The notes under the pieces are model-generated. The model saw only the letters and a list, made by a program, of their open reading frames with translations, did not search any database and was not told the origin of the DNA. Shown in pieces: positions 118 through 61,048 of a DNA stretch of 64,000 bases. The stretch covers positions 3,616,001 to 3,680,000 of the forward strand of contig OY820905.2 of assembly GCA_963555755.3 (NCBI GenBank). The letters are read 5' to 3'. The stretch is from Nitrospirales bacterium (lineage in GTDB: Bacteria > Nitrospirota > Nitrospiria > Nitrospirales > UBA8639). Each line of letters begins with the position of its first letter. Within the stretch, counting starts at the first letter, position 1. Position numbers and translations under genes: made by a program.

Positions 118-205
118 GAGATGGCGCTCTGAGGAGCCGGATGTGTGGTCCACAAGTCCGGTTCTGTGAGAGCTGGGGGAGGGCAACCTCCCCTGGCTAC
201 TCGAC
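1..205 (+). mobile_element. 3' end of a group II intron (end of IEP gene, domains V and VI); 5' part lies outside the window
   Basis: DV-like hairpin GAGCCGGATGTGTGGTCCACAAGTCCGGTTC at 134-164 with AGC triad. DVI GGGGGAGGGCAACCTCCCC follows, then the typical terminus CTACTCGAC ending at 205. Confidence 0.85.
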
Positions 206-269
206 AAGAATGGTTTTGGTCACTTTTGCCGAAACAAAAGTGACTCTTCGGCGGGGGCGAAACCCCGCA
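206..269 (+). repeat. Repeat family A copy 1 (3' half; forms the 3' exon of the intron)
   Basis: AATGGTTTTGGTCACTTTTGCCGAAACAAAAGTGAC...GCGGGGGCGAAACCCCGCA matches the five other copies. Confidence 0.85.
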
Positions 270-291: not shown

Positions 292-585
292 TTAGGCTAC
301 GGAAAGGTCTAACCGCTGCACGTTTTTTAAATTGACCTTCTTCTTGGCCTGCCACAAATTGTAATTGTCTTGCATGGCCAACCAACTCTCTGGGGAACGG
401 CCCAAAGTTTTGGAGATTCGTAGTGCCATCTCTGGAGTCATGTGGCTTTCTCCGTTGAGTAGACGTCCAAAGGTGGAGGGAGAAACTTTCAGCTTTTCGG
501 CAACGTTTCGAACGCTGATGTTGAAGGGTTTGATATAAATTTCCCTGATGAATTCCCCAGGATGTGGCGGGTTATGCATGCTCAT
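292..585 (-). CDS. higA: HigA-family antitoxin (HTH XRE)
   Basis: MHNPPHPGEFIRE...TPEMALRISKTLGRSPESWLAMQDNYNL signature; overlaps the toxin stop codon. Confidence 0.92.
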   Translation of the reverse strand: MSMHNPPHPGEFIREIYIKPFNISVRNVAEKLKVSPSTFGRLLNGESHMTPEMALRISKTLGRSPESWLAMQDNYNLWQAKKKVNLKNVQRLDLSVA

Positions 586-863
586 GAGTGGTAATCCTCA
601 TAATTGATTACGTAAGCGTTTCCTTCCTCAAATCGGAAGGTCATTCTCCAGTTTCCACTGACGTCAATGGCCCAGTGATCTTTCTTTTTCCCCTTCAAGG
701 GGTGAAGTCTCAATCCTGGGAGATCCATGTCCTCGATATTTTGGGCTGTCTCTAATGCTGTCAATTGTAAGCGTAATTTCTTTTTGTGCCCCGGTTGAAT
801 CCCAGCCACGCTCCCTGTCTCATAGAAATTCTGGAGTCCTTTGTGGCTAAAAGATTTAATCAC
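582..863 (-). CDS. higB: HigB/RelE-family toxin
   Basis: MIKSFSHKGL...LHPLKG...WAIDVSGNWRMTFRF...YEDYH signature. Confidence 0.92.
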   Translation of the reverse strand: MIKSFSHKGLQNFYETGSVAGIQPGHKKKLRLQLTALETAQNIEDMDLPGLRLHPLKGKKKDHWAIDVSGNWRMTFRFEEGNAYVINYEDYHS

Positions 864-900: not shown

Positions 901-921
901 TTAATGTTCGCCTCTCCCGCG

Positions 922-1159
922 TTGGGCGCGGCGGAGCCGCCGTACTGAATCGACTTGATCTGCCCGCCTTCGGATGCGGCGGAGCCGGAGCCCCGAATCG
1001 ACTTCTTGGCGAGGGCTGTTTGAGCGGAGCGAGTTCCCTCGCCCTCTTATTCGGGGCTCAGGCGGAGGGACCCCCTTGGGGCCGCATACGGGCGGAAATG
1101 GTTTTGGGCACTTTTGCCGAAACAAAAGTGCCTCGTCGCGCGGGGGGCAAGACCCCGCA
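922..1159 (+). repeat. Repeat family A copy 2 (long form, left motif duplicated)
   Basis: TTGGGCGCGGCGGAGCCG...GAGCGAGTT...CTTATTCGGGG...GGGCCGC...AAATGGTTTTGGGCACTTTTGCCGAAACAAAAGTGCC...ACCCCGCA. Confidence 0.85.
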
Positions 1160-1318
1160 TAACTAATTTTCACTTAAAAGAAAAAGGTGGCGTGGGGATG
1201 GGGGAGATTTCTCTCAAGGGTCGAAATGACAAACAGGTGGGGGTTGATAAGACAACGAGTATTTTTTGGTTTGTTGCTTCCTCAGGTACTGGTTGAGGGA
1301 TTGCAGTTGGAACCTCAA

Positions 1319-8579: not shown

Positions 8580-8700
8580 AAAGTTGTTGAAAAAGGCCGC
8601 CAGCGGTGTTCTCGGCCCTTTGTCGTGCTCACGTACTGCCTGTACGCTCCGCGCGCCAAAGGACCTGCGGCTTTGCTGGACAACCTTTTTCAACAACTTT
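8580..8700 (+). repeat. Repeat family B copy 1
   Basis: AAAGTTGTTGAAAAAGG...CCTTTTTCAACAACTTT arms around the GTGCTCACGTAC..GTACGCTCCGCGCG core. Confidence 0.85.
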
Positions 8701-12271: not shown

Positions 12272-12393
12272 GAGGGCATTGAAAATGGCCGCCAGCGGCG
12301 TTCTCGCCATTTTGCCGTGCTCACGTACTCCATGTACGCTCCGCGCGTCAAAATGGCTGCGGCCTTGCTGAACGGACCATTTTGAATCCCCTC
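12272..12393 (+). repeat. Repeat family B copy 2
   Basis: Family B core between the terminator and the leuA RBS. Confidence 0.8.
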
Positions 12394-18983: not shown

Positions 18984-20000
18984 ATGCTCCTCTCTGACTT
19001 CGATGTGCCCTTCGATGAAACGCTCATCGCCGAATATCCCGCGTCTCCCCGAGATCATGCCCGCCTGTTAGTTGTCCCGAAGGATGATGGCCCCTTTCGC
19101 CATCATCAAGTGCGAGATCTTCCTTCCCTGCTCAAACCAGGCGATGTGCTGGTGCTCAATGACACCAAAGTCATTCCCGCACGGCTGCGAGGTATCAAGT
19201 TGCCGGGAGGGGGCAAGGTGGAATTGTTGCTGGTCCGACCAGTGGAAGATACGGTTTGGGAGGTGTTGCTCAAAGGGCATGTGAAAGAAGGCCAGGTCCT
19301 GCAACTGTCGAAAGAAGCCACTGCCATTGTGAAGGAGCGTGGGGAACGGACGGTCGTACAATTCAACATGCCAGGTTCAATGCAGGATCTGCTTCAACAA
19401 TCAGGAGAAATTCCTCTTCCGCCTTATATTAAACGAAAGGTAGAACAAGCCGATGCCCAAACCTACCAAACCGTCTATGCGCGCACAGAAGGTGCGGTGG
19501 CTGCGCCAACAGCCGGCCTGCATTTCACATCGGAACTCCTAGAGAGTTTAAAGAAGCAAGACATTCAGATGGTGAGCATCACCCTTCATGTCGGACCAGG
19601 AACCTTCAAACCGGTGACGGTAGAAAAAATCGAAGAACATCGAATGGATGCCGAGTGGTTCGAGATTTCCGAACAATCAGCCGAGTCTATCAATACCGCC
19701 AAAGCCGAAGGCCGACGCATCGTCGCAGTAGGAACCACCGCCGTCAGAACGTTAGAAGCCTCGGCAGTTCACGAAGGCCTTGTTCGAGCAGGAAGCGAAG
19801 AAACCCGCCTATTCATAACCCCCGGCTTCGAGTTTAAAGTTGTCGATGCCATGCTCACCAACTTCCACTTCCCAAGAACCACCCTCATCATGCTAGTCTC
19901 AGCCCTAGCCGGGAAAGAGCGCATCCGAGTCGCCTACGAAGAAGCCATCAAAGAACAATACCGTTTTTACAGCTATGGCGACGCTATGCTGATCCAATAG
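18984..20000 (+). CDS. queA: S-adenosylmethionine:tRNA ribosyltransferase-isomerase
   Basis: NDTKVIPARL, PLPPYIKR, AAPTAGLHF, TNFHFP and YRFYSYGDAMLI motifs. Confidence 0.97.
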   Translation: MLLSDFDVPFDETLIAEYPASPRDHARLLVVPKDDGPFRHHQVRDLPSLLKPGDVLVLNDTKVIPARLRGIKLPGGGKVELLLVRPVEDTVWEVLLKGHVKEGQVLQLSKEATAIVKERGERTVVQFNMPGSMQDLLQQSGEIPLPPYIKRKVEQADAQTYQTVYARTEGAVAAPTAGLHFTSELLESLKKQDIQMVSITLHVGPGTFKPVTVEKIEEHRMDAEWFEISEQSAESINTAKAEGRRIVAVGTTAVRTLEASAVHEGLVRAGSEETRLFITPGFEFKVVDAMLTNFHFPRTTLIMLVSALAGKERIRVAYEEAIKEQYRFYSYGDAMLIQ

Positions 20001-20122
20001 AGGCCCTGTCCCAAAATCCCGCCAGCAGCGTTCTCGGCCTGCTGTGGTGCTCACGTACTGGAGTACGCTCCGCTCCCCAACAGCCCTGCGGCCTTGCTGG
20101 GCCCAATTTCTGGGCGGTCCTC
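20000..20122 (+). repeat. Repeat family B copy 3 (divergent arms)
   Basis: GCCAGCAGCGTTCTCGGCC...GTGCTCACGTACTGGAGTACGCTCCG...GCGGCCTTGCTGG. Confidence 0.75.
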
Positions 20123-20237: not shown

Positions 20238-21113
20238 ATGAAACTGATAAAGCCAAAAATTGAAAGCACTATTCATAGTCCGGATTTTAGGGAATGGTGT
20301 CCATCTTCCTTCGAGTCTTTTCTTGTCGAATTGAACCATATCGTTGATTCATGTGAGGGTGATGATCCTGCTCCCTTGTTTAGAGGTCAAGCAAATAAAG
20401 GATGGCATCTCGACTCGACATTTGTCAGAAATTGTATTCAGCACCTTTTTAATATTCCTGACTACCGCACAGTAAAAAAAGAAGTAAGGCAATCAGTTCC
20501 CTTTCATAAAGCTATGGCATCTTTATTTTTGTTAAAATATGGAACGCTTTGGAACCCAAGTCCGGAATCTTTTGAACGAGAAGAAGTTGATGGTATCGAC
20601 CCATGGTTTGAGTTGTTAAAGAACTTGCAGCAGTACCCAGAAAATGACCGTTTTATAAATGGTACTTTTCTGGTGGATTGGAGTTGGTCCAAAGATATTG
20701 CCTTATACTTTGCAATTTTCCATGGGAAGGGACAGGAGAGGGAGGTGAGTTCTGGAGATGGATCCTTATGGATATATGATTCCGTTGCAACAGGAAACAC
20801 TCTTCAGCAAAAAAAGCTTGGTGAAATACTTTCAATGATGAGGAGTGAGGAATTTTTGAACGGTAGCAAGACTTTCCCACTTTTATTTTATCCACCTAGC
20901 CAAACCTTGCAGCCTCGCCAGAAAAATCAAGCCCCTTTTTATATTGCCCAAATGGACTTTCGGTATGATTTGGCGGATCATTGGGCCTCTTATGAGGAGC
21001 AGAATAAAAAAAGAGTATTTATCAAATTGGTCATAGATGAAATTTTAAAGGAGGAAGCTGCTAAATATCTCGAGTCGAATAATATTAGTGAAAAATTTGT
21101 TTACCCTGCATGA
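20238..21113 (+). CDS. FRG-domain protein
   Basis: LFRGQANKGW, LVDWSWSKDIALYFA and RQKNQ motifs; visibly AT-rich. Confidence 0.8.
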   Translation: MKLIKPKIESTIHSPDFREWCPSSFESFLVELNHIVDSCEGDDPAPLFRGQANKGWHLDSTFVRNCIQHLFNIPDYRTVKKEVRQSVPFHKAMASLFLLKYGTLWNPSPESFEREEVDGIDPWFELLKNLQQYPENDRFINGTFLVDWSWSKDIALYFAIFHGKGQEREVSSGDGSLWIYDSVATGNTLQQKKLGEILSMMRSEEFLNGSKTFPLLFYPPSQTLQPRQKNQAPFYIAQMDFRYDLADHWASYEEQNKKRVFIKLVIDEILKEEAAKYLESNNISEKFVYPA

Positions 21114-21144
21114 TCGATGGGAAAAGCTTTGTCCCCTCTCAACG

Positions 21145-21256
21145 CCTCGGGCGCGGCGGAGCCGCAGCCCCGAATCGACTTTTTGGCGAAGGTTGTTTGA
21201 GCAGAGCGAGTTCCTGAGCCATCTTATTCGGGGTGGAGGCGGAGGGACCCCCATGG
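21145..21256 (+). repeat. Repeat family A copy 3, left part (right part at 23835-23922; split by the IS)
   Basis: Removing 21257-23844 restores a contiguous family A copy. Confidence 0.85.
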
Positions 21257-23834
21257 CAATGGCATTCGTTTAAGGAATGGGCGGCATTCGTTTAAGGATT
21301 TGGCTCATTCGTTTAAGAAACGGATTCCATGTGCTTAAGGGACTTTCAGATAGAGGCCATCGACCCTGTGGGGTTCTTGGACTGGCTGTTCTTTTTGGGT
21401 GGATGCCACGTGGACTCCGGTTTCATGGATGTTCGAGGATAGGATCGGCCCGGCCTCACCCGTTGGTAGTGACTCACAATGGACTCGAAGGCCCGTTGGA
21501 CGGCGGTCTGCATCCGAGCATGGAGCACGAGCAGATCTTCGAAGCTTCGCGCAAACACGTGAAGGCAATGTTTGAAGTTGGTCTTGAATGTCCGCCTCGC
21601 CCCGGTGCCGGTTCCAACTATGGACGATCCGGGAGGGGCCATGGGCTCAGCTGCGGGGGCTTCGGGATTGAGTGCGTGGTCCGCCCGATTGGCGAACAGC
21701 CGGTTCATGGTGATCAGGACGAAATGCGCGAAGAGCTCTTGTTTGACGCCGCGCTCGGTTTTGGCATGAAACTCCTCGATGAGGAACAGGCGCTTGCTCA
21801 CCTTGTAGAGTTCCTCGATGCCCCAACGGGCATGGTAGAGATCCATGAACTCCTGGAGCGGATACCGCTGCTGGGGGCCGACCAGGGTGGTGCCCAAGCA
21901 AAATCGGCTGCCGGCCATCTCATATTTCAGAAGCCGCAGGCTCAACGGGATGATGGCGAGATCAGGATAGACCGCCCGGATGTCTCGTTGCGTGCGTGCG
22001 GCGGGGAAGAGGGTGACCGTGGTGTCGGTGTCCGGGCCGGCAAAAAACTCTTGAATCTCCTTGAACCCGCTGTCTTGGAGACGAAACACGGCGTGGATCC
22101 CGGCGGTCCAGTGCTGATGCAGCAGGACGTAGGAGAAATAGCCTCGATCGTACACCACGACATCGTTGGGCTTCAGCACAGCCAGGTGCCGCAGGGCGCA
22201 CCGTCGCTCGTTGCCATGCGCGACGAGGTCGAAATCCCAGGGCACTTGCGACGTGAGGTGGTAGAGGCAACTCAGCAACCCTTGAGGATAGTGTGCATTG
22301 TCAGAGGGCAAGGGGTAGCCACACGCCCGCAACGCGCGGGGCAGTGTAAGCTTGGAGCCATCGACGGCAAACACCCGATGGCCCAACCAGGTGTCGTTGG
22401 AGTCGTGTGGGGCATAGGCGTCCAGAATGTTCCGGTTGACGGACTGGAAAATGGCTTCGTCCAGTTTGCGACGTGCGACACAAAAGGACGCCGGCGCGAT
22501 GCTGTGGGGTTGCGGGAGCGCGAGCGCCAGGTTGTCGCAACTGTCCCACAAGTCATCAATGGTGGTGCCGTAACTTTGGGAGTTGGTTGACGACACCAAC
22601 CGAAAGATCAACAGCATCAGGATCAGGGAATCGATCACCCGTTTCCGGACGCGCCACTGGTCATCGTACTGGGCCGCCACGTCGTGGAGGATGTGGACCA
22701 CCTGTTTCCACCAGGCGACAAACCCTTCCCCGACGGACCGTGTGCGACTGGCTCGCACGTCGTTGCGATAGCGTGTCTTCACCGTGACGGCTCGATGCCC
22801 GGCAGTCAGGCACGCGCGCCAGTCGGGTTGGAGCGGATAGAGAAAAATCTCTTTTGTCGTGGGTGGACGGTCCGACGTTGAGCCAAACCGCCCGCGCCCC
22901 TCGGTGTAGCCCACGAAGTGCCAATTGGCCGCTCGATAACAGGTCCCGGCAAACCGGGAGGGATCGATGAACGTTTCAATCAGCACCGGGCGATAACCGT
23001 AGACTTCAACCCAGTCGTCCCCGATCTGCTTGGTGGCCCGCGCCAGCACATGGCTGGCGAGATTCGGCACGTCAATCCACGGAAAGATCAAAAACCGATC
23101 ATTGCGCAACACCAATGGCAGGAGCTTCCTCCGGTGCGTCACGTCCCAGCCAATCCAGTGATCTCTGGGGGCCAGCGCCCAGGCGGCCGAGGCCGAAAAC
23201 AGCAGACAGCCCAGCGGGTACGGCTGGGCGGCCGATCTCACCAGATAGCCCAGCTGGGCCCCGATCGGGTGTTTATAGCCCAAATAATGATAGGTCTGCA
23301 GGTAGACTTTCCAGCTCTCGCGTTCCTCTTTCGAGACCACCCGGTGCAGGGTAATTGGGGCCACGGCGGCGAGGGTGTCGGTGAGTGGCTCGGTGGGGGG
23401 CGGCTCGTGAAACGCAGGGATGGGGTGTCCCGGCGCGCGCTTGTGGCGCGTGGCCGGCAGAGTCACGATCCCGTGCGCTTCCAGCTCGGTCAGCAAGGTC
23501 AAACAGGAATGAATCTTGTTGTGGCCCGTCGGCGTGGTCCAGCTGAGATGCTCACAGACGGTGAGGGCCAATTCCTTCCGACTCAGGTGGGGGAACAGCT
23601 GGACGGTTTCTTGGACCTGCGCCAACTGCTTGCGGGTGAACCGCCGCCCGCTAAAGGTCGTCTTGGGTAAGGTGTCCACAGTCTTCATCGAGGATAGTCT
23701 CTCAGAAGACGGAAAAGAAGTCAAGCGAAAAAGGACACCAGGGCGACTTCGGTTCAGAAGCCCTGATCAATCAACCAGTTCCGCTGATAACAGAGAAGGC
23801 AGATTGTTCGTTCGAACCAAACCGAATGCCATTG
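21257..23834 (-). mobile_element. IS4-family insertion sequence, 2578 bp
   Basis: 12-bp TIR CAATGGCATTCG/CGAATGCCATTG; 10-bp TSD ACCCCCATGG (21247-21256 and 23835-23844); visibly GC-richer than its flanks. Confidence 0.92.
21346..23724 (-). CDS. DUF4338 (DruA-like) domain fused to IS4-family DDE transposase (start may be 23688)
   Basis: N-terminal part: YHYLGY, RDHWIGW, RFLIFPW..VPNLASHVL, ETFID..RFAGTCYRAANW. C-terminal part: AVDGS, YDRGYFS, YHARWGIEELYK (IS4 YREK motif). Confidence 0.85.
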   Translation of the reverse strand: MTSFPSSERLSSMKTVDTLPKTTFSGRRFTRKQLAQVQETVQLFPHLSRKELALTVCEHLSWTTPTGHNKIHSCLTLLTELEAHGIVTLPATRHKRAPGHPIPAFHEPPPTEPLTDTLAAVAPITLHRVVSKEERESWKVYLQTYHYLGYKHPIGAQLGYLVRSAAQPYPLGCLLFSASAAWALAPRDHWIGWDVTHRRKLLPLVLRNDRFLIFPWIDVPNLASHVLARATKQIGDDWVEVYGYRPVLIETFIDPSRFAGTCYRAANWHFVGYTEGRGRFGSTSDRPPTTKEIFLYPLQPDWRACLTAGHRAVTVKTRYRNDVRASRTRSVGEGFVAWWKQVVHILHDVAAQYDDQWRVRKRVIDSLILMLLIFRLVSSTNSQSYGTTIDDLWDSCDNLALALPQPHSIAPASFCVARRKLDEAIFQSVNRNILDAYAPHDSNDTWLGHRVFAVDGSKLTLPRALRACGYPLPSDNAHYPQGLLSCLYHLTSQVPWDFDLVAHGNERRCALRHLAVLKPNDVVVYDRGYFSYVLLHQHWTAGIHAVFRLQDSGFKEIQEFFAGPDTDTTVTLFPAARTQRDIRAVYPDLAIIPLSLRLLKYEMAGSRFCLGTTLVGPQQRYPLQEFMDLYHARWGIEELYKVSKRLFLIEEFHAKTERGVKQELFAHFVLITMNRLFANRADHALNPEAPAAEPMAPPGSSIVGTGTGARRTFKTNFKHCLHVFARSFEDLLVLHARMQTAVQRAFESIVSHYQRVRPGRSYPRTSMKPESTWHPPKKNSQSKNPTGSMASI

Positions 23835-23922
23835 ACCCCCATGGGGCCGCGCACGGGCAAAAATGGTTTTGGGTCCTTTTGCCGAAACAAAAGGATCTCG
23901 TCGGCGGGGGCGAAACCCCGCA
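23835..23922 (+). repeat. Repeat family A copy 3, right part
   Basis: GGGCCGCGCACGGGC..AATGGTTTTGGGTCCTTTTGCCGAAACAAAAGG...AAACCCCGCA. Confidence 0.85.
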
Positions 23923-23960
23923 AAATAATCATTCATAATTTTTTAAAGGAGCCCCACCCC

Positions 23961-24336
23961 ATGAGTCTAAAAGTTTCCGAAGTCGCCTTTGTTGGGTATC
24001 CCGTATCGGAGTATGAAGCGGGCCAAAGATTTTTATGAACGCGTTCTTGGCCTAAAGGTAGGGGAGATTGATGAAGAAATTCCTGTAATGCCCGGAAAGT
24101 ATTGGGTGGAATATGAGGTCGGATCCCAAACATTTGCGATCTCGAATGCGTGGGAACCCTCAGGCCAAAGCGGTCCCTCAATTGCATTCGAAGTCGAAGA
24201 CTTTGAAGAAGCAATGAATCACCTCAAAAAAGAAAGCGTAAAAATTGTGGCTGAATGCATAGAAACCCCAGTCTGCCGTATAGCCCTCATAGAAGACCCC
24301 GACGGCAACGGCATCACCATTCACAAAAGACATTAA
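23961..24336 (+). pseudogene. VOC/glyoxalase-family gene, frameshifted paralog of 26157-26531
   Basis: Extra G at 24011 (TCGGA-G-TATG versus TCGGATATG in the intact copy); could also be a sequencing error. Confidence 0.8.
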
Positions 24337-24380
24337 AAGCTAAAGTGCGAGGCGGATGAATAAGAGGGAAAGGGCAATTT

Positions 24381-24626
24381 ATGAAGAAGACTAAACCCGA
24401 TGAACTTCGCTCGGAATATTCTCGAGAAGATCTTGGAAAAGGCGTACGGGGGAAATACTTAAATGCCTATCGAGCGGGACATAACCTGGTTCGGTTGAAT
24501 CCAGAAGTTGCAGCAGCCTTTCCTTCTGACGAAGCCGTGAATGAGGCGTTGAGTTCACTCATCAAAGTCGCCCAGCACGCTGGCCTAACAAAGCGCTCAA
24601 ATGGACGCAGCAAATCAAGTCGGTAA
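24381..24626 (+). CDS. Orphan BrnA-like antitoxin
   Basis: DELRSEY...GVRGKY...VRLNPEVAAAFPSDEAVNEAL; no toxin partner visible. Confidence 0.65.
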   Translation: MKKTKPDELRSEYSREDLGKGVRGKYLNAYRAGHNLVRLNPEVAAAFPSDEAVNEALSSLIKVAQHAGLTKRSNGRSKSSR

Positions 24627-24635
24627 ACAGGTCCC

Positions 24636-25229
24636 ATGAAAAAAGTTTCGCTTTCGAGAAATGATTTATTGGGTTTTGCTGCTGATGACCTTGGATTCTA
24701 CGGTCTTGACGTTAGCCGAATCAGTACAGTCTTTATTGCGCAAAATTTTCAGCTTCAAGCCAATCGAACCATAGACACCATGTCTTTAATGGATGAGGTC
24801 AAATACCTTGAAGGTCTGAGAAACAAGACTTCAACGGAAAAGGAGAAAGCTTTTAAAAAGCTGCCTCTGAAAGGACTTTTCAAGAAGCACTTTATGAGCG
24901 CGGGATTTATTGTGAAAAATATTGGTGCTCATTTCGGTTTTGAATGGGGCGGCAACATTAATCTTGACAATCTGATTGAAGAAGTCTTTTCAAATAACAA
25001 ATCGGGGTACGTTAATGATGCTTTTGTTGGCCAACTTACATATGGCATGGTAACTCAAGCCATTGAGAAGAGAGCCCAAAAAGGATTGACAGGAGAATGG
25101 ATTGTCTTTGGGAAGTTTAAGGGCAAGAACTATTATCTCACTATTGCTGCACATGATGAGGGCGATGAGAACATTTTTAATCGCGTGTGCGATGCGTACG
25201 ATTTCGACTTTCCCTTCCTACGAAACTAA
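24636..25229 (+). CDS. Hypothetical protein (AT-rich, accessory)
   Basis: 197-aa ORF with no motif I can name. Confidence 0.7.
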   Translation: MKKVSLSRNDLLGFAADDLGFYGLDVSRISTVFIAQNFQLQANRTIDTMSLMDEVKYLEGLRNKTSTEKEKAFKKLPLKGLFKKHFMSAGFIVKNIGAHFGFEWGGNINLDNLIEEVFSNNKSGYVNDAFVGQLTYGMVTQAIEKRAQKGLTGEWIVFGKFKGKNYYLTIAAHDEGDENIFNRVCDAYDFDFPFLRN

Positions 25230-25241
25230 TCTACCTATCCC

Positions 25242-25380
25242 CGCCTTGGGCGCGGCGGAGGCGGAGGAACCCGTAGGGCCGCGCACGGGCGAAAATGGTT
25301 TTGGGTCCTTTTGCCGAAACAAAAGAGCCTGTCCCGAGTCTGTCGAGAGGAACCTCGTCGCGCGGGGGCGAAACCCCGCA
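25242..25380 (+). repeat. Repeat family A copy 4 (short form; small REP inserted at 25328-25350)
   Basis: Left motif joined directly to GGCGGAGG..CCC..GGGCCGCGCACGGGC; CCTGTCCCGAGTCTGTCGAGAGG interrupts the right hairpin. Confidence 0.8.
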
Positions 25381-25463
25381 AACGTTATTTGTGCAGGATT
25401 GTGCGTATCTGTTTACAATGTCATCGAATTTGAGAAATACAGATTTTGTGAGGAGGGATCGTT

Positions 25464-25670
25464 ATGAAATTTACCGTGACGCTCGATCGTGATGAAGACG
25501 GAATGTGGGTAGTGGAATGCCCTTCGATACCTGGTTGCGTGAGCCAGGGGAAGAATGAAGAAGAGGCCTTGGAAAATATCAAAGAAGCCATCCAACTTTG
25601 CCTTGAAGTGCGTGCAGAGCAGGGACTCCCTTTGACAGTAGAGACAAGGGAAGTTGAGGTGACTGCCTGA
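25464..25670 (+). CDS. hicB: HicB-family antitoxin
   Basis: EDGMWVVECPSIPGCVSQGKNEEEALENIKEAI. Confidence 0.9.
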   Translation: MKFTVTLDRDEDGMWVVECPSIPGCVSQGKNEEEALENIKEAIQLCLEVRAEQGLPLTVETREVEVTA

Positions 25671-25901
25671 ATGGCGACCCTACCCACGTTAAGTGGTCGC
25701 GAAATCGTTAAGGTATTCGAGAAGCTTGGCTGGAGAGTTGCCCGTCAGCGTGGTAGCCATATTATCCTGGTCAAGGACGGTCAGGTTGCCACACTTTCTA
25801 TTCCTGATCATAAGGAAGTGGCGAAAGGAACCCTGCGGAGTTTGCTCCGTATGGCTCGACTCACAGCTCAGGATTTCGGGGATGTTCTTCGGGTTCTTTA
25901 A
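25671..25901 (+). CDS. hicA: HicA-family toxin
   Basis: RQRGSHIIL...SIPDHKEVAKGTLRSLL. Confidence 0.9.
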   Translation: MATLPTLSGREIVKVFEKLGWRVARQRGSHIILVKDGQVATLSIPDHKEVAKGTLRSLLRMARLTAQDFGDVLRVL

Positions 25902-26003
25902 AGGTTTATTTGTTGAAATAATAAATAGAGGAATTTTGAAGGAATTGGGTTCAGACACAATTAATGGACCTTAGTGAGTCTAGCCAGCCTTTGAATTTTT
26001 TTA

Positions 26004-26117
26004 CGCCTTGGGCGCGGCGGAGGCGGAGGGACCCGGAGGGCCGCGCACGGGCGGAAATGGTTTTGGGTCCTTTTGCCGAAACAAAAGGACCTCGTCGCGC
26101 GGGGACGAAACCCCGCA
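26004..26117 (+). repeat. Repeat family A copy 5 (short form)
   Basis: Same left motif and right hairpins as copy 4. Confidence 0.85.
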
Positions 26118-26156
26118 ATATATTCATTCATAAATTTTTAAAAGGAGTTCTACCCC

Positions 26157-26531
26157 ATGAGTCTAAAAGTTTCTGAAGTCGCATTTGTTGGATATCCCGT
26201 ATCGGATATGAAGCGTGCAAAAGATTTTTATGAACGGATTCTCGGTCTTACAGTAGGAGAATATGATTACGAGATTCCCGAAATGCCAGGAAAATACTGG
26301 GTGGAGTATGAAATTGGATCGCAAACGTTTGCCATTTCGAACGCCTGGGAACCCTCTGGTCAAAGCGGTCCATCCATTGCTTTTGAAGTCGAAGACTTTG
26401 AGGAGGCAATGACTCACCTCAAAAACGAAGGCGTAAAAATTGTGACGGAGTGTATCGAAACCCACGTTTGCCGAATAGGGCTCATTGAAGATCCCGATGG
26501 CAACGGAATCACCATTCACAAGAAGCACTAA
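26157..26531 (+). CDS. VOC/glyoxalase/bleomycin-resistance family protein
   Basis: PVSDMKRAKDFYERILGL...IAFEVEDF...DPDGNGITIH. Confidence 0.9.
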   Translation: MSLKVSEVAFVGYPVSDMKRAKDFYERILGLTVGEYDYEIPEMPGKYWVEYEIGSQTFAISNAWEPSGQSGPSIAFEVEDFEEAMTHLKNEGVKIVTECIETHVCRIGLIEDPDGNGITIHKKH

Positions 26532-26591
26532 GTTTGGATAGTGCTTTCCTTATATTTCAAAAAGATTTAGGGAATCAGTCCTGATTGTTCG

Positions 26592-26807
26592 AGCCTTGGG
26601 CGCGGCGGAGCCGCAGCACCGAATCGGCCTCTCTGGGGAGCACTGTCTGAGTCCTTCGACAAGGCTCAGGACAGGCTCCGCGAGTTGCGCAGCCATCTTA
26701 TTCGGGGCGGGGGCGGAGGGACCCGGAGGGCCGCGCACGGGCGGAAATGGTTTTGGGTCCTTTTGCCGAAACAAAAGTGCCTCGTCGCGCGGGGACGAAA
26801 CCCCGCA
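26592..26807 (+). repeat. Repeat family A copy 6 (long form; small REP at 26653-26675)
   Basis: Full family A layout with CCTTCGACAAGGCTCAGGACAGG inside. Confidence 0.85.
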
Positions 26808-26888: not shown

Positions 26889-27599
26889 CTACAGATACTC
26901 TTGCCGAATTTCCACATCGGAGACCATACGCTTGGCCGCTTGAAAGGCTTGCAACGCACGTTGTTTCTTTTGGAACAAAATTTGAAGACGAATCCGTTTG
27001 TGGATACGGTCTTTTTCCACCTCATCCTCCATGCCAGCCGTTTGACGCGTGGCTAACTCCTCCGCTTCCTGTACTTCCGATGGATTGAGCGTAGCGACAT
27101 CTTGGACAATTATTTGCGCATGTTGCGTCTGGAGATCTCTGGTCAGTTGTTGTTCAAAGTCTTTTGGTGAAAACCGATTCGCGGAAAGGCGCCGATGGTA
27201 AAGTCCCGCATCAAACGTTCCGTCTGTTTGAAATTCTTTCCTCTTCCTAATTTCATAGCGGAGGGTATTGGGCGAAATGCCAATGTCCCATTCGTCTGCC
27301 GTCACCAGCCATACTTTTTTGTCGACCATACTTTGGATGACCTGTTGTTTTAATCCTTTCTCGTCCACCAATGCCTGTTTCAGCTCATCCTTATAAAATC
27401 GATACATACGAGTATAGGTCCGACGGAATTCATCAAGACTGACTGTATAGGGCCCGACAATGGCTACGGCATTGGGTTGCTGTGAGCTTTCAAACCCAAA
27501 CCAGCCCATCCCAATCATAAAGGTAACGGCAATGAGGAGGATAATGATCTTGAGCAGCCAGGGGTATTTTGTTGAGCCTTCGCGAATGAGTTTAATCAT
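26889..27599 (-). CDS. SurA/PpiD N-terminal-domain protein
   Basis: MIKLIRE..KYPWLLKII TM anchor; F...GTFD..LY..RL...FE motif. Confidence 0.75.
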   Translation of the reverse strand: MIKLIREGSTKYPWLLKIIILLIAVTFMIGMGWFGFESSQQPNAVAIVGPYTVSLDEFRRTYTRMYRFYKDELKQALVDEKGLKQQVIQSMVDKKVWLVTADEWDIGISPNTLRYEIRKRKEFQTDGTFDAGLYHRRLSANRFSPKDFEQQLTRDLQTQHAQIIVQDVATLNPSEVQEAEELATRQTAGMEDEVEKDRIHKRIRLQILFQKKQRALQAFQAAKRMVSDVEIRQEYL

Positions 27600-27613
27600 G
27601 CCGTTCTCCTGTT

Positions 27614-27734
27614 GGGGCTGTTGCAAAAGGCTGCCAGCGGCGTTCTCGGGGCTTTGTCGTCCTCACGTACTCCATGTACGCTGCGGGCGCCAAATCCCCT
27701 GCGGCCTTGCTGGACAGCCTTTTTCAAAAGCCCC
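27614..27734 (+). repeat. Repeat family B copy 4
   Basis: GGGGCTGTTGCAAAAGGCTG...CAGCCTTTTTCAAAAGCCCC arms. Confidence 0.85.
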
Positions 27735-59076: not shown

Positions 59077-61048
59077 GTTCGCAGTAACAGCAGTATGTCT
59101 AGCGGGTTAAAGTCCCGTCCAAGGAATTGTCCGTACACCTTGGTAGCATGAGGAAGCGGCGTCGTGGTAACGCGGGGTCGTCAGTTTCCCCACAGCAAAA
59201 GAGCAGGCCGTAACGCAAGTGAACCGATGAGTAGCCTCGTAAACGAAGTGGAGACGCCGACCCTGTGGTCAGAAGGGGAAGGCCGGTGGAAGGGTGCTGG
59301 AATAACGGAAGTGGCATCCCTCGACTCCCGGGGTAGCAAGGATGGCATGTTCTGGAAGACATATAGCCCAGTGCTGGAGACCCGTTGTGGGGGTGGGGAG
59401 GCCACCGACCAATGTGTATAAGGCAACGAAATCACAGCGGCCCGGAACGGGAGTCGGAGGGGTTCATAGTACCGCGTGAGGCCGAGGGACAACACAACCC
59501 CGGTCGAGGGAAGGAACCCTACTTTGTTCAGGCAACCGAAGAGCGGAGGATCAGGGGATTGCCATGGCGCTAACCACCCCGGAGACGATCAGGACGCTAC
59601 AGAGGAAGCTGTATGCCAAGGCCAAGCAAGAACCGGCCTATCGCTTTTACGCCCTCTACGACAAGATCAGCCAGGAGGATATCCTCAATCATGCCTGGCG
59701 GCTTGTTCGAGCCAATCGAGGCAGCCCCGGGAGTGATGGGCTCAGCTTCGAGGCCATAGAGAGTGGAATCGGGGTAGACACGTTTCTGCGGGAATTGCCC
59801 CGTGATCTGCAAGCCAAGACCTACCGAGCCCAACCGGTGCGACGCGTCATGAGACTTAAAGCGGACGGCAGTTTCCGTCCGTTGGGGATCCCGACGATCC
59901 GAGACCGGGTGACGCAAATGGCCGTGAAACTCATCATCGAGCCGATCTTTGAAGCCGACTTCTGTACGAATTCGTACGGATTCCGGCCCAAGCGATCGGC
60001 CCATGATGCGGTGGACGACATTGCCAAGACGCTCTGGGCCGGCTACACCCAAGTCATCGACGCCGACCTGTCGAAGTACTTTGACAGTATCCCGCATGCC
60101 AAACTCCTGGCCGTGGTTGCCGAGCGCATTGTGGATGGGGGCATCCTGCGCCTCATCAAGCAATGGCTCAAAGCCCCGGTTATTGGCGACGACGCGGACG
60201 GCACCCGGAAAAGTGTAGGCGGCGGGAAAGCCAACCGCACGGGGACTCCGCAAGGCGGAGTGATTTCCCCGCTGCTGGCTAACTGCTACCTGCACATTCT
60301 GGATCGAACCTGGCAACGGCGACACTGCAAAGATAAATTGCACGCGCACTTGGTGCGCTACGCAGATGACTTTGTCGTGATGTGTCGAAAAGATGTAGAG
60401 GAACCGCTGAAGGTGGTGCGCCACGTACTGGACCGACTGGGCCTGAGTCTCAACGAGGCCAAGACCCACATTGTGGATACGACCAAAGCGAGTTTCACCT
60501 TCCTGGGTTTTACGCTGCAGATGAGTCGAGGGGCAAAGACTGGAAAGCCGTACCCGAATGTTCGACCGGCAGACACCTCGCTGAAGCAGATCAAAGCGAG
60601 ACTGACCGACCTGACACAGCGGGACCTGACCGCCATTGCCTTGAGCGACCTCGTGGGAACGGTCAACCGCAGCCTCCGCGGCTGGGTGAACTACTTCCAC
60701 TATCGGAACTCAAGTCTGGCAATGAGCAAGGTCAGAAACCATGCGGAGGACCGGTTACGAACCCATTTGATGAAACGCCACAAGATCAAGGACAGAGGCA
60801 CCGGCTTACGCCGGTTCCCGCAGGCCGATCTGTATGAGCGTTACGGGCTATACAAGGTTCCTACAGTAGCGGGCTGGCGCTCGGCGCATGCCTTGGCATG
60901 AAGAACATCGGAAAGCCGTGTGCGGGAAAACCGCATGCACGGTTTGATGAGGGGGCGCTGGTAATTGCTGACTGCTATGGTCCGTGGTAGACGCGTGCGT
61001 CGAAGCGTTCGAGAGCAGCTCCATGTATGCACCAGTGCTCTACTCTAC
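59077..61048 (+). mobile_element. Complete group II intron (IIB-like), 1972 nt
   Basis: 5' GTTCG; EBS1 GGTCAGA at 59267-59273; DV AAGCCGTGTGCGGGAAAACCGCATGCACGGTTT at ~60913-60945; 3' CTACTCTAC. Confidence 0.92.
59564..60901 (+). CDS. ltrA: Group II intron reverse transcriptase/maturase, no endonuclease domain
   Basis: RPLGIPTIRDR, SYGFRP, DADLSKYFD, GTPQGGVISPLLAN, YADD; X domain LRGWVNYF. Confidence 0.95.
   Translation: MALTTPETIRTLQRKLYAKAKQEPAYRFYALYDKISQEDILNHAWRLVRANRGSPGSDGLSFEAIESGIGVDTFLRELPRDLQAKTYRAQPVRRVMRLKADGSFRPLGIPTIRDRVTQMAVKLIIEPIFEADFCTNSYGFRPKRSAHDAVDDIAKTLWAGYTQVIDADLSKYFDSIPHAKLLAVVAERIVDGGILRLIKQWLKAPVIGDDADGTRKSVGGGKANRTGTPQGGVISPLLANCYLHILDRTWQRRHCKDKLHAHLVRYADDFVVMCRKDVEEPLKVVRHVLDRLGLSLNEAKTHIVDTTKASFTFLGFTLQMSRGAKTGKPYPNVRPADTSLKQIKARLTDLTQRDLTAIALSDLVGTVNRSLRGWVNYFHYRNSSLAMSKVRNHAEDRLRTHLMKRHKIKDRGTGLRRFPQADLYERYGLYKVPTVAGWRSAHALA

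Follow-up and report, generated by a model that had tools for sequence, protein, structure and literature searches.

A folded, genome-wide repeat that brackets toxin-antitoxin genes in a Nitrospirales bacterium

The stretch of DNA considered here (the window) spans 64,000 nucleotides of a Nitrospirales bacterium (GCA_963555755.3, contig OY820905.2; G000:C1:3616001-3680000, where G000 is the source genome and C1 and C2 its contigs), and in its segment between queA and a surA-like gene copies of a hairpin-rich repeat, family A, alternate with small genes. We found that A is a folded, non-coding, genome-wide repeat, that of 15 repeat families it alone brackets toxin-antitoxin (TA) genes, that its right end faces conserved genes and its left end variable DNA, and that relatives differ by whole units of a TA operon plus one A, a hybrid A remaining where the unit is missing. 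The explanation to which we give slightly better than even chances is that A copies would frame slots of fast-changing genes, altered by homologous recombination between copies and retaining TA units through addiction. Same-direction runs would gain or lose units of a gene plus one A by homologous (RecA-type) crossover, TA units would persist since their loss would poison the cell, and the back-to-back pair would be the founding unit, copied to new sites. Cargo enters by several routes, namely as integron fragments (attI-like site, cassette, attC), as insertion sequences (IS), as introns, and through breakpoints outside A. The agency of RecA, the addiction filter and the pair as founder are steps that we infer from the patterns described below, for which relatives are given G numbers, a family label (f1) and genus labels (g1, g4, g11).

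A profile built from 58 copies matched G000 136 times and its reversed sequence not once, and the matches merged into 120 elements on C1 (63 on the + strand, 57 on the - strand), with no replichore bias (65 leading, 55 lagging). The first-pass annotation of the window had all its copies pointing the same way, which is true of the window and does not extend to the genome. The 195-nt consensus folds on its left into a long, irregular domain and on its right into two hairpins, of which hairpin 1 is nearly invariant. Across 40 copies drawn from several genomes, 97% of cells are paired and 19 of 46 pairs change on both sides; such compensatory changes exceeded all 500 shuffles and all slid controls, a comparison of related copies to which no probability is attached. 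The GCGNAGC apex is a stable DNA mini-hairpin. As annotated, single copies have no terminal inverted repeats, and they have no target duplication; words shared by the two ends are no longer than in shuffled pairs (64 copies). Mean identity among copies is 81%, a level that is low for efficient RecA exchange.

A functional RNA, or a promoter or terminator element kept for regulating TA and defence genes, would account for the conserved fold, for its many G-U-type pairs (which point to the + strand) and for A positions kept across species. We nevertheless consider it quite improbable, since A has TA operons in both orientations beside it and is often interrupted by insertions, its copy number ranges from 0 to 32 within one genus (g4), and the apex is that of a DNA hairpin.

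Five Pfam searches for TA toxins returned 81 matches, of which 77 were scored after removal of two PIN matches and one HicA match in long frames and one duplicate on C2. Within 1 kb of A lie 21 of the 77, against 5.0% of genes, and 13 are bracketed by A on both sides, against 0.7% of genes (both background percentages are approximate, the gene calls coming from a simple purpose-made caller). For 14 other repeat families found de novo, toxin enrichment was 0.2- to 1.5-fold, with one at 3.2-fold, and bracketings numbered 0 to 2. The enrichment of TA genes between co-oriented copies that the first-pass annotation had anticipated is thus both strong and specific to A. In intervals of 0.4 to 4.5 kb, TA genes occur in 13 of 22 between co-oriented copies versus 2 of 14 between back-to-back copies (Fisher p = 0.014), an excess that is expected if direct repeats lose non-addictive cargo, and addiction stabilises TA cassettes. 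In G003, six co-oriented intervals contain genes, and four of these have TA-type operons; the 15 back-to-back interiors that were scanned have none and carry single genes (HNH, SNase, TIR-domain or unknown). Defence-type cargo near A in other places (L044 in G231, L032 in G002, L266 in G006, L261 in G003) includes DarTG, Schlafen-AlbA2, CAP12/Pycsar TIR, TIR_2, AbiU2, DUF4238 and a type III restriction subunit, and PEP-CTERM genes recur inside A pairs.

The copies are clustered, with 42 neighbours less than 3 kb apart versus 7.8 expected (maximum 17 in 1000 draws). Among 55 G000 neighbours closer than 6 kb, 23 stand back-to-back with their left ends inward (three of these being collapsed or overlapping fragments), 29 are co-oriented and 3 convergent; the 53 motif sites of G003 give 16 back-to-back, 6 co-oriented and no convergent pairs below 3 kb (n = 22). 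This back-to-back pair, the main unit, was out of sight of the first-pass annotation. Genus g4 has longer runs, in one of which an inverted A and then seven direct copies surround small TA-like genes. When the flanks of A copies in G002, G003, G005 and G006 were compared with G000 (51 of the 53 G003 sites and part of those in the other three), a homologue was present there for 86 of 106 right flanks, 51 of them with an A at the same place and in the same orientation, versus 35 of 90 left flanks. The right end of A is therefore anchored and its left side turns over. The left tips carry extension families that are almost exclusive to them (13 of 14, 4 of 4 and 7 of 7 matches for three of five families), and arm type V is paired with type I at four unrelated G000 sites, a recurrence which suggests that pairs are copied as units. 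Comparison with 21 orthologous sites lacking A gave no clean empty site or target, the breakpoints falling at -72 to +178 nt and often at hairpin remnants. A copy at ruvB, considered as an ancient fixed site in g4, was rejected, as a complete A lies directly beside ruvB at just 2 of the 30 loci; in this genus (L061-L110) intergenic regions are mosaics of several REP-like families, and gene order past ruvB differs almost everywhere.

The turnover is well illustrated by the slot between queA and surA (Table 1). In G003 it holds a 258-aa gene, A, hicBA, an A fragment and a sulfatase gene, and in G002 queA is followed by a 263-aa gene, A, a VOC gene, another hicA operon, a hicB homologue and A. 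In G005 queA is followed by brnT, brnA and a contig end, with a different A before surA on the other side, and in G006 a parC/gyrA-type gene and a collapsed A precede surA. The links of A to VOC and to hicB are kept across relatives, where a full-length A with an insert like that of A4 stands before hicB in G003, and the gene left of A varies, the position of the FRG gene being taken by the unrelated 258-aa gene (G003), the 263-aa gene (G002) or brnT (G005). The right end and flank of A6 are kept beside surA in G005 and G006, its left domain being different in the former and absent in the latter. Within the window, the right part of A3 with the first VOC gene and A5 with the second are a duplicate, 85% identical. 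The proposal that cargo is exchanged at breakpoints inside A holds in part: cargo of this slot differs in every relative examined and some gains or losses of cargo have their crossover inside A, but other changes ignore it.

Elsewhere, an A-TA-A arrangement of G006 corresponds to a single A in G000 whose left flank is that of one G006 copy and whose right flank belongs to the second, A-vapBC-A in G000 is one A in G003, and in G005 the fitAB unit with its A adjoins a different core gene. Identity is higher between co-oriented neighbours than between distant copies (85% versus 81%; 12 pairs, p = 0.014), left domain and right hairpins show no linkage (r -0.06 to 0.19), and several synteny breaks between G000 and G002 or G003 fall at A clusters (judged by eye, uncounted). 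A 2.3-kb tandem duplicate (97.9%) of vapBC, a lexA-like gene and one A is present at G000:C1:2470115-2476821. RecA-mediated exchange, which had been offered only as a fallback, is the best fit to the hybrid copies, the duplicates and the lack of a candidate enzyme that tracks A.

Several points weigh against recombination with addictive retention. Most toxins (56 of 77) lie more than 1 kb from A, and integrating circles of A plus TA would give the same pattern as addiction-filtered loss. At the queA-surA locus, brnT was lost without an A at the deletion point, and G002 retains a hicB homologue but not A4. The unlinked right hairpins may only reflect few variable sites, and in g4 near-identical blocks occur in altered order and in duplicate, their ends lying in A left-tip fragments and in mosaics of other repeats. 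Lastly, neither an excised circle, such as the circular A-gene junctions that had been suggested, nor a deletion junction was found in contigs of public runs (4 + 4), where rare variants are dropped; the joints in these contigs traced to other A copies at single-copy depth.

At seven sites, back-to-back pairs have collapsed to a palindrome of ~85 nt, all joined inside hairpin 1 (three in G000, one in G003, one in G005 that is orthologous to one of G000, and two in G006). One of the G000 sites is a filled pair in G003, and one of those in G006 occupies the position of A6. Such sites could be the empty state of a site-specific system, in which hairpin 1 would be the crossover site and the interior of a pair would be excised and re-inserted by an undescribed, probably host, enzyme. 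Although the shared point of joining, the filled pair of G003 and the A6 of G000 that correspond to two of the sites, the near-invariance of hairpin 1, the lack of linkage between left domain and right hairpins and the recurrent pairing of type V with type I all agree with this, we judge it unlikely: hairpin 1 is self-complementary and supplies a pair with a direct repeat of ~30 bp, so that slippage alone predicts deletion, remnants consisting of hairpin 2 only exist, and no enzyme or circle was found.

Candidate enzymes bear on the main proposal of the first-pass annotation, in which A was an attC-like or REP-like substrate of IntI, another tyrosine recombinase or an HUH/RAYT enzyme acting in trans. 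G000 does contain intI (396 bits, with a short N-terminus), xerC, xerD, and 17 Y1 and 15 Y2 matches, the left tip of A often resembles an attC right box (GTTRRRY), and the inverted doublets recall REPINs. Half of the copies, however, have other tips, and the attC left box (RYYYAAC) lies upstream of 8 of 92 left tips versus 11 on the control side. No intact IntI, Xer, Y1 or Y2 gene of G000 is flanked by A, let alone consistently so; one broken Y1 match of the 17 lies less than 1 kb from an A fragment, and no Y2 match adjoins A. In the family, intI is found in 3 of 61 genomes (G000 and G002 among them) and in none of 17 of genus g4, where the enzyme may have been lost after use. Among 38 g4 genomes, Y1 was found in 3, Y2 in none (by the same search that finds 15 in G000), GIY-YIG in 26 and reverse transcriptase (RT) in 9, and none of these tracks the 21 A-positive genomes, of which a single one has Y1. 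Three single-contig genomes with 17 to 32 A copies (G145, G173, G252) lack Y1, Y2, GIY-YIG and RT alike, and long arrays stand in complete g4 genomes without IntI, Y1 or Y2. With no left box and no enzyme that follows the repeat, a role of A as substrate in trans appears highly improbable.

Part of the cargo, on the other hand, resembles integron material. A crude attC scan of G000 recovered no A copy and gave few sites, two of them inside A pairs, after the gene, and each preceded by a common attI-like site. In G002 this site comes directly after intI, in G000 and G013 after 3' stubs of intI, and it has a G/TTRRRY core with unrelated sequence beyond; from these features it is probably attI. 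In G003, which gave no intI match, every such site (7 BLAST, 9 profile matches) is located 7-146 nt inward of the left end of an A; 8 of the 16 back-to-back pairs (one degenerate) and one co-oriented interval have it, the pairs usually with one gene. In G000 4 of 8 lie just inside an A left end, an attC follows the gene, by eye, in about half of the G003 and G006 cases, and A stands upstream in the same orientation at 10 of 30 fetched attI loci (genera g1 and g11). The site is absent from 17 g4 genomes and from the window, which has only half an attC. It is therefore likely, as far as sequence goes, that some A pairs hold integron pieces without an integrase, and the annotated likeness to an integrase-less cassette array applies to part of the cargo (attI-like site, cassette gene and attC in A pairs) and not to A itself. 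Although speculative and rather doubtful, it is conceivable that A pairs are dispersed slots, tens per chromosome, many with their own attI loaded in trans by one shared or transient IntI, that hairpin 1 serves as a resolution site for an unknown enzyme, and that A is one member of a family of folded single-strand elements that spans phyla and has not been catalogued. The region G000:C1:319000-334000 (L236, L237) has an integron with the 5' part of intI cut by an IS and cassettes downstream of the intI 3' end, as well as two further intI 3' stubs, each followed by the attI-like site. One slot was seen in three states: an intI-attI integron in G002 (L243), an A pair with a 262-aa gene and a small GIY-YIG gene in G003 (L253), and a 161-aa gene without A in G000 (C1:2609067-2610110).

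The exact hairpin motif is restricted to family f1, where 15 of 24 genomes besides G000 have it, against 0 of 276 others in the phylum, the hairpin pattern had no matches in viral contigs, and plasmids gave no match either. A looser core pattern returned at least 121 stretches, 80 of which were fetched; the matches listed include Bacteroidota, Gammaproteobacteria, Desulfobacterota, Campylobacterota and Bacillota, with mostly housekeeping genes as neighbours. No mobility gene was common to the 84 neighbour proteins scanned (47 loci; 84 of 145 listed neighbours), and Rfam returned no family for A, whether the window, a single copy (E values up to 5) or 14 loci from other taxa were searched. Back-to-back pairs of A-like elements, spaced 280-850 nt apart, also occur in records of the Bacteroidota Parabacteroides and Bacteroides (L118, L129, L139, L152, L182).

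The housekeeping neighbours of these relatives, the use of A itself as a target by IS4, introns and other repeats, and the breakpoints that ignore A would all be explained if A merely marked permissive intergenic sites, at which it and small accessory genes accumulate independently. This too seems unlikely to us, given that five more abundant repeat families in G000 show no TA enrichment, that close pairs are biased in orientation (back-to-back versus convergent, 23 to 3 in G000 and 16 to 0 in G003) and that hybrid A copies exist. Other abundant families (in the window, e.g. 20005-20110, 8587-8694, 12279-12386 and 27621-27728) number ~320 copies for F1 and 140-250 for F2-F5, and the loops of A receive inserts of F1, F2, F5 and a palindrome of ~25 nt.

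Sequence reading, the profile and Pfam bear out the six annotated + strand copies of the window and their cargo, including the bracketing of higBA by A1 and A2 and the truncation of A1 by a group II intron (Table 1). What had been overlooked is a 2,578-bp IS4-family element that splits A3 and makes up 39% of the span 20238..26807. Full length is confined to A2, A6 and, once its two parts are rejoined, A3; A4 and A5 have an internal deletion in common. A public-run contig over the first VOC gene has no differences from the window sequence. The BrnA-like open reading frame (ORF) has no Pfam match, is 49% identical to a gene in a relative, and has a G005 counterpart that adjoins brnT; together with its half attC it is likely a former integron cassette. 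A complete group II intron with an RT/maturase ORF (59564-60901) lies at 59109-61048 of the window.

Table 1. Coordinates of family A copies and associated features in the window
Feature	Position	Strand	Basis
Group II intron domains V-VI; 3' end joins A1 at ~model position 127, replacing the A1 left domain	132..205	+	Rfam RF00029
A1, two right hairpins only	205..269	+	Profile match, model 127-192
higBA TA operon (higA 292-585, higB 582-863) between A1 and A2	292..863	-	Pfam HTH_3, HigB-like
A2: duplicated left tip (919-957), full copy (967-1162)	919..1162	+	Profile
queA, conserved left anchor of the slot	18984..20000	+	Pfam; synteny in G002, G003, G005, G006
FRG-domain gene	20238..21113	+	Weak Pfam FRG (below cut-off), PADLOC PDC-S15
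A3 left domain, ending in the first 10-bp copy of the IS4 target duplication (21247-21256)	21144..21256	+	
IS4-family element, ORF 21346-23724	21257..23834	-	Pfam, NCBIfam transpos_IS4_1 over cut-off; ends and duplication
A3 right part: second duplication copy, then two hairpins (A3 overall 21144-23922)	23835..23922	+	Profile
VOC/glyoxalase gene copy 1, frameshifted (one extra base near 24010)	23961..24336	+	Sequence, Pfam
brnT 3' stub and BrnA-like gene (24381-24626)	24344..24626	+	Comparison with G005, where intact brnT precedes
5' half of attC-like site, end of BrnA-like gene	24583..24616	+	Motif scan; same stretch in G005
197-aa hypothetical gene, AT-rich	24636..25229	+	No Pfam, NCBIfam or PADLOC match
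A4, ~75-nt internal deletion, 25-nt small-repeat insert between hairpins	25243..25380	+	Profile
hicB (25464-25670), hicA (25671-25901)	25464..25901	+	Pfam
A5, internal deletion as A4, right flank resembling that of A3	26005..26117	+	Profile, comparison
VOC/glyoxalase gene copy 2, intact	26157..26531	+	Pfam
A6, full copy	26593..26807	+	Profile
SurA-like gene, conserved right anchor	26889..27626	-	Pfam SurA_N_3; synteny

The IS4-family element entered a small hairpin of A3 with a 10-bp duplication. The assembly has 12 long copies, more than 99.7% identical, 7 of which lie in A hairpins (one of the 7 on C2); the element is recent, prefers GC-rich hairpins and has a DruA-like N-terminal domain fused to a DDE transposase. 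The copy at G000:C1:575852-578613 stands between two A right halves where G003 has a filled pair, which is likely an IS-mediated deletion. Contig C2 (14 kb) consists of part of the IS4 element and a 99.98% copy of C1:4141231-4153174 in which the A that is intact on C1 bears the IS, likely through strain heterogeneity or IS-mediated rearrangement. Inserts of ~655 nt with intron domain V-like ends lie antisense at A model positions 129-134 (G000:C1:823758, 3131190, 3779147 and 4002010), and the intron before A1 joins on the sense strand at ~127, so that different introns use nearly one spot from both strands. At G000:C1:1600-2290 an IS91-like 3' remnant is joined via an F1 fragment to an A left domain (by eye). 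Like IS91/ISCR, A has a fixed right end and variable left extensions; it differs in having no Y2 match beside it, and Y2 is found in 0 of 38 g4 genomes.

Superintegrons carry TA cassettes. CALINs are integrons without integrase (PMC7923331). A arrays resemble both in their small TA, defence and VOC cargo punctuated by a repeat, in the attI-like site and attC inside some pairs, and in the likely stabilisation by addiction. They differ in that the repeat between genes is A rather than attC, in that genes lie in both orientations (higBA is antisense to A1 and A2), unlike cassettes, and in that A units often keep an attI, which CALINs lack. REP, REPIN and BIME elements are high-copy extragenic hairpin repeats linked to RAYTs (PMC3337134, PMC2817692). 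A shares with them its high copy number, extragenic hairpins, the lack of target duplication, inverted doublets (16 of the 22 close pairs of G003 and 23 of the 55 of G000), tandem higher-order arrays and use as an IS target. In contrast to the ~25-nt palindrome, however, A is a 195-nt multi-helix element without a GTAG head in consensus or fold; its doublet spacers hold genes (0.6-2 kb), no RAYT is flanked by A, and most A-rich genomes lack Y1. PMC3184786 describes REP-associated gain and loss of a TA operon at the folA-apaH hot spot (ccdO157) of Escherichia coli, likewise a repeat at a variable intergenic site; that is one site, whereas A follows a genome-wide rule at tens of sites with fixed polarity. 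The IMU and NFM2-MITE (PMC3575428, PMC3184786) are also two structured non-coding copies flanking an integron without a working integrase, but they have terminal inverted repeats and target duplications and involve class 1 integrons, and A has neither, is chromosomal and old, and occurs many times per genome. In the literature searched, which did not extend to subscription papers, we found neither this repeat nor pairs of this kind described, nor any link between Pseudomonas R200 repeats and TA genes.

A single repeat family thus covers one in four of the scored TA toxins, which bears on the question of where small defence genes and chromosomal TA genes settle and why they are kept. The geometry of the copies sorts their cargo, direct repeats holding TA operons and inverted pairs single unknown or defence-like genes, which makes the idea of an addiction filter directly testable. 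The unknown genes inside pairs constitute a list of anti-phage candidates, and dispersed attI-bearing units without an integrase would escape searches that need intI or attC clusters. Finally, the fold core of A spans, among the matches listed, Bacteroidota, Gammaproteobacteria, Desulfobacterota and others, and it has no Rfam entry.

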